A DNA stretch of 64,000 nt. Origin: an uncultured Verrucomicrobiota bacterium (GTDB lineage Bacteria; Verrucomicrobiota; Kiritimatiellia; RFP12; UBA1067). The stretch covers positions 3,852 to 67,851 of the forward strand of contig CAMZEN010000001.1 of NCBI GenBank assembly GCA_947305775.1. The letters run 5' to 3'. Below the pieces are notes generated by a model that ran no database searches, was not told the origin of the DNA, and worked only from the letters and a program-made list of their open reading frames with translations. Below are positions 29,318 through 61,876 of this stretch, piece after piece (within the stretch, counting starts at the first letter, position 1; each line of letters starts with the position of its first letter). The position numbers were made by a program, and so were the translations under genes.

Positions 29318-31912
29318 ATGACCGTCAAGGTCGCTATCGACCTTGCGCTCGACAGGCTCTTCGACTACGAAGTGCCGGAAGCGCTCAGAAAGAAGCTGGC
29401 CGTCGGCCAGCTTCTTTCCGTTCCGTTTGGCCACCGCGAAGCGCGCGGCTTCGCGGTCGAGGTTTTGCCTGAGGGGAGAGGAGGGGATCGGACGGCGCCG
29501 CCCCTGGCGAAACTCAAGGAGATTTCGGCGATAGTCGATGAGACGCCGTTCTTCTCGCCTGCGCTGCTTACGCTGGTGCGCAAGATAGCGGCCTACACCG
29601 CCGCGCCGCTCGAAAGCGTAATTCGTGCGGCGCTTCCGGCGGCGGTGCTGAAGAAGAACGCCCGCGCGAAGGAAATGCTTTTCGTGGAGCCGCTCACGAA
29701 AGGTGAGGCTCCCAACTTGGGAAATTTCGCGGCTCCCGACCTAGGGAATTGCGCGACTCCCGGCCTGGGGTATTGCGCGGCCCCCGACCTGGGAAATTGT
29801 GAGGCTCCAGACCTGGGGAATTGTGAGTCTCCCGATCTGGGAGAGCGGGCGTCCCCGCCCGCGAATAAGGAGAGGTTAACTCTTCCATCAGAGCGGGCGA
29901 GACGCCCGCTCTCCCAAGCGCTCACTAAGCGTCAGCGCTGGCTTTACGACAACATCGTCCGGCTTGGCGGCGGCTGGATGGCGCAGCTCTGCACAGAGTT
30001 GAGCACTACGCCAGCATCGATTCGCGCACTAGCCGCGAAGGGGCTCGTCTCCGTCGCGCCGCGCGCGAAGCGCCGCGACCCTCTCGCAGGACGCCGTGTA
30101 TTGCCGACAAAGCCGCTCGCGCTCAACGCAGAGCAGTCTGCCGCCTTGGCGTCCATAAAGTCCATTTGTGAGGCTATCCACTTGGGGAATTGCGCGGCTC
30201 CCCACTTGGGAGAGCGGGCGTCCTCGCCCGCGAATAAGGAGAGGTTAACTCTTCCATTAGAGCGGGCGAGACGCCCGCTCTCCCAAGATGCGTCGCTCTC
30301 CCAAGGCGCGTCGCTCTCCCAAGATGCGTCGCTCCCCCAAAGCGCGTCGCTCTCCCATGGCGCGTCTACTCTTCTGTTGCATGGGGTGACGGGTTCGGGG
30401 AAGACCGAGGTGTATCTTCAGGCGATCGCGGCCGAGCTGGAGAAGGGACGCGGCGCGATCGTCATGGTTCCCGAGATCGCGCTCACGCCGCAGACAGTGC
30501 AACGCTTCGCTTCGCGCTTTCCCGGGCGCGTCGCCGTGCTCCACTCGGCGCTCTCGGACGGCGAGCGCTACGACGAGTGGCACCGCATCCGCCGTGGCGA
30601 AGCGCGCGTAGTCGTCGGTCCGCGCAGCGCCGTCTTCGCGCCGGTCGCGAACCTCGGGCTCATCGTCGTCGATGAGGAGCACGAGCCCAGCTACAAGCAG
30701 GAGGACAACCCCCGCTACAACGCGCGCGACGCCGCAGTGCTGCGCGGCGCGATAGAGGGTGCGGCGGTCGTGCTCGGCTCGGCTACGCCCTCGCTCGAAA
30801 CCTGGATGAACGTTCGTCGCGGCAAGTATGCCTGCGCGGCTATGAAGGGACGCGCAGGCAGCGGCTCGCTGCCGGTCGTGCGCCTCGTCAACATGCAGGA
30901 GGAGCCCGGCCGCACGATGTTCTCCGCCGCGCTTCTGGACGCGATTCGCCTCAGGCTCGACCGAGGCGAGCAGACGATGCTCTTCCTCAACCGCCGCGGA
31001 TGGTCGCGCTCAGTCACATGCGAAGCCTGCGGACACGTAATGACCTGTCCCGACTGCGACCTCGCCTACACCTATCACCGTGCGGACGACTGCCTCAGAT
31101 GCCACGTCTGCGGCGGATGGCGGGAGACGCCGCGCATGTGTCCTTCGTGCGGCGCAAACGCGCTAACCTTTCGCGGCATCGGCACCCAACGCGTCGAGGC
31201 GGCGCTCGCGAAGTGCTTTCCGCGCGCGGCGATACTTCGCATGGACGCCGACTCCACTTCGCGCCGCCACTCGCACGACGACATTCTCTCGGCATTCCGC
31301 CGCGGCGACGCGCAGATTCTCGTCGGCACGCAGATGATCGCGAAGGGGCTGGACTTTCCGAACGTCACGCTCGTTGGCGTGCTGAACGCCGACAGCTCGC
31401 TAAACATGCCAGACTTCCGCGCAGCCGAGCGCACTTACCAGCTGATCGCGCAGGTCGCGGGACGCGCAGGACGCGCCGAACTGCCGGGCGAAGTCGTGGT
31501 GCAGAGCTTCGACCCGTCCGCGCCCGCGATAGCCGCAGCCGCGCGCGGCGACTACGAAGGCTTCGCCGCGCGCGAGCTGAAGGACCGCGAAGAGGGATGG
31601 TTCCCGCCTTTCTGCCATTTGGCGGTGGTCGCCGCCAAGTCGCAGGACCTAAAGCTCGTCTCCAGCTGGTGTGAAATGTACGCGAAATCGTTCACGGCAT
31701 TTGCAGAGAAGAATCGTGAACTTGGGCTGATGGTGTCCGAGGCGGTGCCGAGCGCACTTGAAAAGGCGGACGGATGGTACCGTTGGCAAGTAGTGCTTCG
31801 TGCGCCGAGAGCGCGCGCGATAGTCTCTGCGTGGCGCACGATAGTAGCCTGCCGTCCTCCGCCGAAGACCCTGCGCATCGCAATAGATATGGATGCCCAC
31901 AACCTTGTGTAG
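29318..31912 (+). CDS. priA: Primosomal protein N' carrying two in-frame repeat-derived insertions
   Basis: LDRLFDYEVP, LHGVTGSGKTEVY, VPEIALTPQT, VDEEHEPSYKQ, CEACG..CPDC..CHVC..CPSC, GTQMIAKGLDFPNV, QVAGRAGR. Confidence 0.95.
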   Translation: MTVKVAIDLALDRLFDYEVPEALRKKLAVGQLLSVPFGHREARGFAVEVLPEGRGGDRTAPPLAKLKEISAIVDETPFFSPALLTLVRKIAAYTAAPLESVIRAALPAAVLKKNARAKEMLFVEPLTKGEAPNLGNFAAPDLGNCATPGLGYCAAPDLGNCEAPDLGNCESPDLGERASPPANKERLTLPSERARRPLSQALTKRQRWLYDNIVRLGGGWMAQLCTELSTTPASIRALAAKGLVSVAPRAKRRDPLAGRRVLPTKPLALNAEQSAALASIKSICEAIHLGNCAAPHLGERASSPANKERLTLPLERARRPLSQDASLSQGASLSQDASLPQSASLSHGASTLLLHGVTGSGKTEVYLQAIAAELEKGRGAIVMVPEIALTPQTVQRFASRFPGRVAVLHSALSDGERYDEWHRIRRGEARVVVGPRSAVFAPVANLGLIVVDEEHEPSYKQEDNPRYNARDAAVLRGAIEGAAVVLGSATPSLETWMNVRRGKYACAAMKGRAGSGSLPVVRLVNMQEEPGRTMFSAALLDAIRLRLDRGEQTMLFLNRRGWSRSVTCEACGHVMTCPDCDLAYTYHRADDCLRCHVCGGWRETPRMCPSCGANALTFRGIGTQRVEAALAKCFPRAAILRMDADSTSRRHSHDDILSAFRRGDAQILVGTQMIAKGLDFPNVTLVGVLNADSSLNMPDFRAAERTYQLIAQVAGRAGRAELPGEVVVQSFDPSAPAIAAAARGDYEGFAARELKDREEGWFPPFCHLAVVAAKSQDLKLVSSWCEMYAKSFTAFAEKNRELGLMVSEAVPSALEKADGWYRWQVVLRAPRARAIVSAWRTIVACRPPPKTLRIAIDMDAHNLV
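29705..29837 (+). repeat. 5.5 x 24-bp degenerate coding tandem repeat (xAPDLGNC) abutting a REPIN-like element
   Basis: Units such as gcggctcccgacctagggaattgc start at 29705, 29729, 29753, 29777, 29801 and 29825 (partial). Confidence 0.9.
29838..29917. mobile_element. REPIN-like palindromic element, copy 1 (in frame in priA)
   Basis: tgggagagcgggcgtccccgcccgc-spacer(aataaggagaggttaactcttccatc)-agagcgggcgagacgcccgctctcccaa. Confidence 0.8.
30206..30286. mobile_element. REPIN-like palindromic element, copy 2 (81 bp, in frame in priA)
   Basis: ttgggagagcgggcgtcctcgcccgc...gagcgggcgagacgcccgctctcccaa; near-identical to copy 1; preceded by 1.5 units of the 24-mer. Confidence 0.8.
30287..30358 (+). 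repeat. 4 x 18-bp coding tandem repeat (D/G-ASLSQ) containing the element 3' end
   Basis: gatgcgtcgctctcccaa, ggcgcgtcgctctcccaa, gatgcgtcgctcccccaa, agcgcgtcgctctcccat. Confidence 0.9.
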
Positions 31913-32094
31913 GCGGCCCTTGCCCTCGGAAACCGCTTTTTCTGTTATCTGCATGTTTAGTGCCATAATCGCTAGATTATGGCAAATCTCCAGACCCCCT
32001 AGGGTAGGGGTTGAGAAACCCCCTAGAGGGAGAGCGTGCAGGGTAGGGAGTAGCGCCGTCCTACCCTTTAGGGTGCCGGGCGCGCGCCCCTAAC

Positions 32095-32174
32095 TTGGGA
32101 GAGCGGACGTCTCGTCCGCTCATAAGGAGAGTTGGAATCTTCCTTCAGAGCGGGCGAGACGCCCGCTCTCCCAA
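32095..32174. mobile_element. REPIN-like palindromic element, copy 3 (intergenic)
   Basis: ttgggagagcggacgtctcgtccgc..taaggagagttggaatcttcc..gagcgggcgagacgcccgctctcccaa. Confidence 0.8.
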
Positions 32175-32228
32175 GAGTCGGCCGGGTTGGGCGATCAGTC
32201 GGTTGCGAGGCGAGCGCATTTTACCCCA

Positions 32229-32258
32229 TTGACAGTCGCAAACGAGTTGTGATATAAT
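32229..32258 (+). promoter_or_regulatory. Near-consensus sigma70 promoter of the surface-protein operon
   Basis: TTGACA(32229-34)-18 bp-TATAAT(32253-58) with TG extension; AGGAGGT RBS at 32281. Confidence 0.85.
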
Positions 32259-32291
32259 CCATACTGTCTCTACAAAGAAGAGGAGGTCTAG

Positions 32292-61252: not shown

Positions 61253-61484
61253 GGCTACTTCTTCTCTTTCTTTTGCCGCGTATTATCTCATATTCCCGCC
61301 CCGCACGCAAGCCGCCAAATCAACCATACGTCGGCCACTATTGCCTATCCGTATGGGATATTGTCCCTATTGGGTTTGAGCAAACGACCTATTGGTTTGG
61401 GTTTTGGCCTATTGGCACCCCATTAAGCAAACCTTTTGCACCAAAGGAAATTTTGCTGCGCAGCAAGCGTCTTGGAAGATCGTG

Positions 61485-61572
61485 CGCTGTAACTTGGGAG
61501 ATCGTACGCTGTAACTTGGGAGAGCGTACGCTGTAATTTGGGAGAGCGTACGCTGTAATTTGGGAGAGCGGG
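61485..61572. repeat. 4 x 22-bp tandem repeat containing the REP left end
   Basis: cgctgtaa(c/t)ttgggaga(t/g)cgta units at 61485, 61507, 61529, 61551; the last runs into element copy 5. Confidence 0.9.
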
Positions 61573-61636
61573 CGTCTCGCCCGCTCAGAAGGAGAGTTAA
61601 TCTTCCATCTACGCGGGCGAGACGCCCGCGCTCCCA
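61560..61636. mobile_element. REPIN-like palindromic element, copy 5
   Basis: ttgggagagcgggcgtctcgcccgc-tcagaaggagagttaatcttccatctac-gcgggcgagacgcccgcgctccca. Confidence 0.8.
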
Positions 61637-61822
61637 GTGATTCGCCCCCTCCCCTAGGGCTAAACTCGCAACCATATGCTGCCTTATCAATAAACCCGCC
61701 AGGGCGAACCACAACAGCCCTAGCGGACCATAACTCCGACGATAGCGGATCATAACCCATACGGTAAGGTCAAATCCGTTTGCCTTAGGGGACCATAACC
61801 CCTACCTCTAAGGGCGTAATAC

Positions 61823-61876
61823 TTGGGAGAGCGGGCGCTGTAACTTGGGAGCGCGGGCGTCTCGCCCGCGCTCCCA
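61823..61876. mobile_element. One 22-bp unit plus collapsed REP hairpin (copy 6)
   Basis: tgggagcgcgggcg-tct-cgcccgcgctccca (61846-61876) is a perfect 14-bp-arm palindrome, preceded by ttgggagagcgggcgctgtaac. Confidence 0.75.

Follow-up and report, generated by a model that had tools for sequence, protein, structure and literature searches.

A 64,000-nucleotide stretch of an uncultured rumen or gut Kiritimatiellae genome (assembly G000, C1:3852-67851; hereafter, the window) contains six copies of a small GC-rich palindromic repeat, which we identify as members of a family of repetitive extragenic palindromes (REPs) that mostly occur as inverted doublets, or REPINs. To our knowledge, systems of REPs or REPINs and their REP-associated tyrosine transposases (RAYTs) have been studied almost only in Proteobacteria and Cyanobacteria, and we found no publication linking REPINs or RAYTs to Kiritimatiellota. 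The present work documents such a family in uncultured gut Kiritimatiellae, with a GGAG rather than a GTAG foot; it is a known type of element in a new lineage, and its transposase is identified only tentatively. On balance, we favor the explanation that the family has been moved by a single-tyrosine (Y1) enzyme of the RAYT type, for which a gene on contig C39 is the best candidate. The aspects of greatest interest are two codon-phased, long-lived insertions within priA and the question of which enzyme serves the repeat.

Assembly G000 comprises 2.70 Mb in 106 contigs and is 92% complete. Positions given without a contig name are window positions. Counts of distribution and co-occurrence refer to 319 genomes of the order (a smaller set held 61 genomes), and conspecific comparisons refer to metagenome contigs that are 95-99% identical to G000.

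Hairpin structure and copy number of the family

The repeating unit is a GC-rich hairpin of 26 nt, 5'-GGAGA-GCGGGCG-TCT-CGCCCGC-TC, in which, read from the outside, the GGAG(A) foot is followed by one strand of a stem of up to 9 bp, a loop of 3 nt and the returning strand. Two inverted units surround an asymmetric spacer of ~25 nt (AAGGAG..TTAA..TCTTCC; 23-29 nt in the 36 full doublets of the genome) to give an element of ~80 nt. The spacer-oriented consensus of 31 genomic doublets is CTTGGGAGAGCGGGCGTCTCGCCCGCTCAT-AAGGAGGGTTAAn-TCTTCCATCTnC-GCGGGCGAGACGCCCGCTCTCCCAGT, in which the foot (CTTGGGAGA-GCGGGCG...) is GGAG(A) and carries neither the GTAG nor the CGTC tag. With up to three mismatches allowed, the 26-nt unit has eight matches in the window, compared to none in 100 shuffles. 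The six copies lie where the original prediction, made from the letters of the window, had placed them; five are full doublets, while the sixth proved to be a single collapsed palindrome:

29838..29917, + strand: copy 1, full doublet, in frame in priA (insertion site 1)
30205..30286, + strand: copy 2, full doublet, in frame in priA (site 2, between the Q-motif region and Walker A)
32094..32174, + strand: copy 3, full doublet in the 380-nt spacer after priA
39458..39535, - strand: copy 4, full doublet between a DUF975 gene and a GH20 hexosaminidase gene
61471..61570, + strand: tandem array of half units CTTGGGAGAGCGTACGCTGTAA with a 22-nt period (4.5 copies), which leads into copy 5
61560..61638, + strand: copy 5, full doublet, left end of a duplicated block
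61846..61876, no strand: copy 6, single collapsed 31-nt palindrome, TGGGAGCGCGGGCG-TCT-CGCCCGCGCTCCCA, with a 14-bp stem and TCT loop

The inverted units and the conserved AAGGAG...TCTTCC spacer, which occurs in both orientations, were likewise as predicted: copies 1, 2, 3, and 5 point one way and copy 4 the other. Copies 1 and 2 have left arms with a 4-nt loop in place of the 3-nt loop. Copy 3 has its variant arm (GCGGACG/CGTCCGC) on the AAGGAG side of the spacer, opposite to all other variant copies, indicating that spacers can flip between the inverted arms. Copy 4 carries a conserved tail of ~35 nt and is also present in conspecific contig L181, and the collapsed form seen in copy 6 recurs at C7:27054-27084 and C12:56018-56048.

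A covariation test on 63 distinct units revealed double-sided changes at six of the nine stem pairs (GC to AU, GC to CG, and AU to CG). For four of five measures, none of 500 shuffles matched the observed values, and sliding the partner column lowered pairing from 90% to 31-58%. The gcggacg/cgtccgc double change, already noticed in the window, is real and is found in 13 units. Further double changes, here and in relatives, convert GAGC/GCTC to GCGC/GCGC or GAAC/GTTC, and GGGCG/CGCCC to GGCCG/CGGCC or GAGCG/CGCTC. Because these compensatory changes sit within one arm and break arm-to-arm pairing, the small hairpin is the conserved object, which fits a REP rather than the inverted termini of a miniature inverted-repeat transposable element (MITE). 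As judged from these sequence comparisons, the unit hairpin appears to be under selection. The whole doublet is predicted to fold as one long hairpin (-36 to -37 kcal/mol, z about -9 to -10), and an Rfam search of the window gave no match. The REPIN-type architecture proposed at the outset holds, with inverted doublets, a predicted long-hairpin fold, arms that are more conserved than the spacer, and a mostly extragenic location.

Genome-wide, 79 units were found with up to three mismatches, compared to none for a reversed control, and 89 with a looser pattern. A search with nhmmer returned 50 loci, consisting of 36 full doublets and 14 partial loci, well short of the hundreds of genomic copies that had been anticipated. 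Several of these loci lie at contig ends, so the true copy number is somewhat higher; indeed, many G000 contigs break or end at these repeats. Doublets are on average 85% identical to one another and only two pairs are identical, with conservation of 98% and 90% in the arms and 84% in the spacer, and no dominant master sequence exists among the ~36 doublets.

Part of the copy number is due to segmental duplication. Copies 5 and 6 mark either end of a block (at least 700 bp) of which duplicates exist on six other contigs (C11, C12, C25, C38, C70, and C96); other copies share flanks of ~40 nt, and ~5 clean copies share no flank. The same block also holds, at 61987-62046, a perfect 22-nt tandem repeat (GGAAACAGCCTCGTTTCAGGTC, 2.7 copies) upstream of a gene for a BspA-type leucine-rich repeat surface protein, and this repeat recurs at C11:54873-54925. 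Tandem arrays of half units (foot, outer stem, and short linker) with periods of 17, 19, 20, 21, or 22 nt abut ~12 of the loci.

The distribution of the family is largely extragenic, and copies are also found in divergent promoter regions. Where a long open frame runs across a locus, the priA copies are the only two that sit in genuine coding sequence; no other in-frame copies were found, the remaining frames being upstream extensions of the true start or spurious.

Copies within priA and turnover of insertion sites

The in-frame copies in priA, an essential gene, are the part of this family likeliest to interest a specialist. Three features describe the locus in addition to copies 1 and 2:

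29318..31912, + strand: priA, 864 aa, host of copies 1 and 2, with all PriA domains intact
29707..29842, + strand: 24-nt tandem array, 5.7 copies, abutting copy 1 and translated as (A/E)APDLGNC repeats
30276..30366, + strand: 18-nt tandem array, 5.1 copies of REP foot and outer stem, translated as SLSQ(D/G)A repeats

Both copies are translated as GERAS(P/S)PANKERLTLP(S/L)ERARRPLSQ, and the repeats lengthen priA by about 130 residues. Relatives of the PriA protein come from rumen and gut Kiritimatiellae metagenome-assembled genomes (MAGs; e.g., RUG and RGIG isolates). The orthologues of the same genus are 722-760 aa long and are without insert 1. Insert 2 is missing as well from the G016 protein (83% identical), and the G008 protein (82% identical) has at site 2 a collapsed single unit and an 18-nt array of the same type, indicating that the site-2 insert is older than a species split. 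Insert 1 is present in conspecific metagenome contig L194 (~98% identical), whose 24-nt array has two units (48 nt) fewer and whose reading frame is preserved; as this contig is independent, insert 1 is not a MAG assembly artefact. The array periods are 24 and 18 nt in priA and 17-22 nt between genes, where none is a multiple of three except one of 21 nt.

In this respect, the priA copies behave like Rickettsia palindromic elements, which occur in frame in protein genes and have no known transposase (reviewed in PMC10969869). In both cases, palindromic repeats are read through as peptide segments in a conserved gene for which insert-free orthologues exist. The copies described here differ in that they bear no sequence relation to the Rickettsia elements, affect one gene (priA) only, and measure ~80 nt with codon-phased arrays.

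Insertion sites of the family turn over between species. In G008 and G016, the syntenic spacer at priA measures ~40-90 nt, compared to 380 nt in G000, and has no counterpart of copy 3; ~11 of 12 G008 sites with a mappable flank lack a family member on the matching G000 contig. Within the species, six loci are occupied in both G000 and conspecific contigs. With regard to the strain polymorphism that had been suggested as a test, contig L205 carries a REPIN within a block of 315 nt that is lacking at C24:35155, and no clean case of gain or loss of a REPIN by itself was seen among the conspecific contigs.

Two further loci show larger rearrangements next to REPINs, which could be assembly chimeras at repeats. 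Contigs L188 and L202, compared with G000 C1:43310, C2:39402-39762, and C96, share their right side (a C96-like segment, then C2:39402) and differ on the left, with the junction at a REPIN. REPIN-to-REPIN recombination could have produced this pattern, the alternative being a chimeric assembly at the repeat.

Taken together, these data give little support to the description of the family as active or recent. The mean doublet identity of 85%, the presence of just two identical pairs, the contribution of segmental duplication, the lack of a REPIN-only event among conspecific contigs, and the age of priA site 2, which makes at least one site ancient, all weigh against recent activity, and we see little sign that the family continues to move.

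Across the order, at least one match to the unit is found in 106 of the 319 genomes and at least ten units in about 30. Units per genome range from 0 to 222, with maxima in G308 (222) and G150 (147), and are patchily distributed over genera. The exact 26-mer also occurs in unrelated contigs that, by their names, appear to derive from soil, peat, and sediment (GC 0.50-0.66; L175, L176, L178, L180, L182, L184, L186, L192, and L201), either singly or in doublets with different spacers. The unit sequence is thus conserved far beyond rumen Kiritimatiellae.

A candidate Y1 enzyme and competing explanations

As predicted, the window holds no transposase, and no Y1 gene is present on its whole contig. 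The assembly as a whole encodes at least ten Y1 genes: a 181-aa gene on C39, a 291-aa family with four members, a 360-aa helix-turn-helix (HTH) gene on C20, three RAYT/DprA-like fusions on C23, C11, and C7, and a broken gene on C53. Among these, members of this REPIN family bracket the C39 gene alone:

C39:16607-17149: Y1/HUH gene, 181 aa, with HUH and YxxxNP motifs and an IS200/TnpA-REP fold

A full REPIN lies 110 nt upstream of this gene and a relic unit overlaps its stop codon. Genome-wide, there are 55 occurrences of the pattern of this relic, TGGGAGA-N10-14-CGCCCGC, of which 53 fall within known loci; shuffles contained none. In the C39 protein, the HUH motif takes the form HIH (MPDHIHLL) and the YxxxNP motif the form YIRENP. 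Its confident AlphaFold model (pLDDT 82.5), in which the catalytic fold is intact, matches the TnpA proteins of ISDra2, IS608, and IS200 and reaches a template modeling (TM) score of 0.51 against Escherichia coli TnpA-REP (4ER8); the matches to entries 2XM3, 2F4F, and 4ER8 have probability 1.00. A profile comparison gave a match to IS200 TnpA at E = 0.003, and a single-sequence search of the PDB returned a weak IS200 match only. The protein remains below curated thresholds, with 19.9 bits for Pfam Y1_Tnp (cut-off 23) and 32 bits for NCBIfam REP_Tyr_transpos (cut-off 80). With ~50 loci in the genome and a Y1/HUH gene bracketed by family members, the repeat is neither rare nor free of a linked Y1 gene, the two findings that would have spoken against the original prediction.

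These observations make a RAYT-type enzyme the likely mover of the family. By analogy with known systems, a Y1 HUH enzyme of the RAYT/TnpA-REP type would recognize the small hairpin and its foot on single-stranded DNA, nick beside the hairpin and rejoin the strand, such that doublets would be copied to new sites. Slippage and recombination at hairpins could then give rise to half-unit arrays, collapsed single units, and inverted spacers.

Several findings weigh against the C39 gene as that enzyme, which leaves it the best but an uncertain candidate. The gene stops right after the Y motif, while its homologues (59-70% identity) are 340-390 aa long and have a conserved C-terminal DprA-like domain (a weak DprA match, E = 0.085) that is missing in G000; the relic unit at the stop codon could mark a REP-associated deletion that cut the gene short, rather than a gene that serves the repeat. 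In 14 relatives, including the repeat-richest G308, G150, and G317, no family unit lies within ~2.5 kb of the C39-type homologues, which instead hold in-gene hairpins with the foot GTTTTGCA/TGCAAAAC, and no synteny was found between the C39 flanks and the homologue loci. A RAYT-like gene flanked by REPs does exist, as had been envisaged, but it is truncated, its homologues are not flanked, and its link to the repeat is tentative.

The co-occurrence of C39-type genes with the repeat is modest and confounded by phylogeny. In favor of the assignment, a C39-type gene is present in 9 of 10 genomes with at least 50 units, compared to 76 of 309 others (Fisher p = 4e-5), and more weakly in 14 of 31 genomes with at least ten units, compared to 71 of 288 (p = 0.02). 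Against it, within genus g39 there is no enrichment (6/11 repeat-rich genomes, 11/22 others), the REP-bearing genomes G048, G047, G054, G104, and G106 are without a C39-type gene, and the 61-genome set gave no clear signal. A second candidate is the 291-aa type: in G008, one such gene is followed 100 nt downstream by a full REPIN, and G000 holds a decayed unit at the corresponding position.

The in-gene hairpins of C39-type genes form a pattern of their own. In-frame hairpins tagged GAGTGTTGCA or TGCAAAAC occur several times per gene at L020 (G008), L161/L164 (G308, G317), L174 (G239), and L170 (G164), both in the C-terminal part and in the variable stretch that separates the HUH and Y motifs. 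The GTTTTGCA-footed hairpin family is essentially absent from G000.

The chief alternative, which we regard as possible though clearly less likely, is that the family is an orphan or is served in trans by an enzyme other than C39. The cognate enzyme would be a classical RAYT of the LPHW type that is no longer present or falls within the 8% of the genome missing from the assembly, or another Y1 protein acting in trans, and the present copies would have spread mainly via segmental duplication, slippage, and recombination. Consistent with this, all Y1 genes of G000 score below the curated RAYT cut-off, the assembly has a completeness of 92% with many contigs broken at repeats, several copies are segmental duplicates in a family of 85% identity, and the exact 26-mer occurs in the unrelated soil, peat, and sediment contigs. 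No LPHW-type RAYT was found in the assembled part of G000. Such a gene (214 aa, C43:37491-38132) exists in the congener G021, where it forms a REPtron at locus L209 (G021:C43:37300-38270), bracketed by AAGGAGAT-GCGGCATCTTGCCGC in three copies upstream and two downstream, with partner hairpins GGCGCGGGACGCGCC-ATCTCCTT. The bracketing REPs have the same design as the family described here (foot GGAGA, GC stem, TCT loop), but their stem sequence differs. Similarly, G048 has 33 units and an LPHW-type gene as its only Y1 gene, but that gene is not flanked by the repeat. No family units lie beside the classical RAYTs of G016, G021, G034, G047, and G060, each of which has its own REP, and no Y1 gene was found on the 32 metagenome contigs with an exact unit. 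The much stronger conservation of the arms than of the spacer suggests continuing constraint and, together with the bracketing of the C39 gene by true family members, argues against an orphan population.

The other Y1 genes of G000 were considered as sources of an enzyme and set aside. The 291-aa Y1/HUH gene is part of a repeat of 1.2-1.3 kb with four copies that are 84-99% identical (C6:68351-69316, C40:23875-24840, C45:603-1580, and C14:9327-10256). The protein has split HUH and Y regions, and a second hairpin family, GCGGGGACWGTCCCCGC, with 24-39 genomic copies, borders the unit at either end; the unit looks like an autonomous IS200-like or TIRYT-like element. It was rejected as the cognate enzyme because it has this hairpin of its own on both sides, and also because nine matches to it occur in G006 (75% identity for the closest), where units of the GGAG REP are almost absent. 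We keep it as a minor rival because of its adjacency to family members in G008 and on C45. Two GC-rich palindromes just upstream of copy 3 (31950-32093; GGGTAGGGAGTAGCGCCGTCCTACCC and GCCGGGCGCGCGCCCC) recur beside the 291-aa units on C40 and C45 and represent another small repeat family.

No family member lies near the Y1 genes of C20, C23, C11, C7, or C53, and these were likewise rejected. The Y1 protein encoded on C20 (C20:12021-13151; 360 aa) carries a winged-helix HTH domain at its C-terminus, and a 35-nt palindrome, AAGTGAGAATATAGGTCAGACCTAAATTCTCACTT, lies on either side of the gene. The RAYT-like genes fused to a DprA-like domain lie at C23:31826-32755, C11:17506-18699, and C7:5564-6862; the C11 fusion, judging by sequence only, is apparently placed between hsdM and hsdS genes resembling those of type I restriction-modification systems, and the C7 fusion has an in-frame insert bounded by GGGGC..GCCCC hairpins.

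A broader proposal, which we consider rather unlikely, is that a GGAG-footed REP is very widespread and conserved in sequence, is tolerated or even useful as coding sequence in priA, and is served by an undescribed Y1 clade. In that case, the priA arrays would expand and contract only in whole codons, and the clade may be that of the RAYTs fused to a DprA-like domain or that of the LPHW type.

It is improbable that the repeat is primarily a host-function element, acting in 3'-end protection of mRNA, in attenuation, or as a site for DNA-binding proteins in the manner of bacterial interspersed mosaic elements (BIMEs), with its spread being secondary. Co-directional genes do flank the short spacers that hold copies 3 and 4, conservation of the structure is strong, and occupancy is kept at the six loci shared with conspecific contigs. 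Nevertheless, the hairpins are followed by no T-run and are thus not intrinsic terminators, they match no Rfam family, their sites differ between species, and copies are also found in divergent promoters and inside priA; a host function would, moreover, be compatible with mobility. Finally, the inverted ends and the size of ~80 nt are also those of a classical MITE, which would have arisen by deletion from a DDE-type insertion sequence and be moved via its terminal inverted repeats, but this origin was rejected as very unlikely because no target-site duplications are visible at the clean copies, each arm is a hairpin kept by the within-arm compensation described above, and single units and half-unit arrays are common.

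Relation to known REP systems and further observations

The closest described counterparts of the family are the REPINs of Pseudomonas fluorescens SBW25 with their RAYT transposases (Bertels and Rainey, 2011; PMC3116915). Both consist of inverted REP doublets with a short spacer that are predicted to fold into a long hairpin, have arms that are more conserved than the spacer, show compensatory changes, number in the tens of copies, lie mostly outside genes, and have a Y1 gene beside family members. The family described here differs in its GGAG(A) foot, its host lineage (Kiritimatiellae), and its composition of ~36 doublets at 85% identity with no master sequence, as well as in the half-unit arrays that flank many copies and in the translation of two copies. 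In addition, the Y1 gene that it flanks belongs, in truncated form, to a RAYT/DprA-like clade and is one of at least ten Y1 genes in the genome.

A comparison with the REPs and BIMEs of E. coli and their TnpA-REP protein (YafM; PDB 4ER8) (Messing, 2012, PMC3479197; Quentin, 2018, PMC6006769) reveals a similar combination of a small hairpin with a conserved 5' tetranucleotide foot and mosaic clusters of units and linkers, and the predicted C39 model superposes on 4ER8. The foot is GGAG rather than GTAG, and C39 stays below the curated cut-offs. The GTAG- and CGTC-tagged REP superfamilies and TIRYT units (Di Nocera, 2013; PMC3733652) likewise associate a tagged palindrome with Y1 genes, but the tag found here belongs to neither. 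Relatives within the order do carry GTAG-footed REPtrons.

As several Y1 clades and several hairpin families coexist, the specificity of enzyme for repeat could be worked out in this lineage. On a practical level, the repeats break MAG assemblies and could mislead gene callers. Elsewhere in the window, a sequence of 372 nt is repeated in tandem at positions 55441-56739 (3.4 copies, 82% matches) and contains nested repeats of 18-27 nt; this is probably a repetitive coding region.

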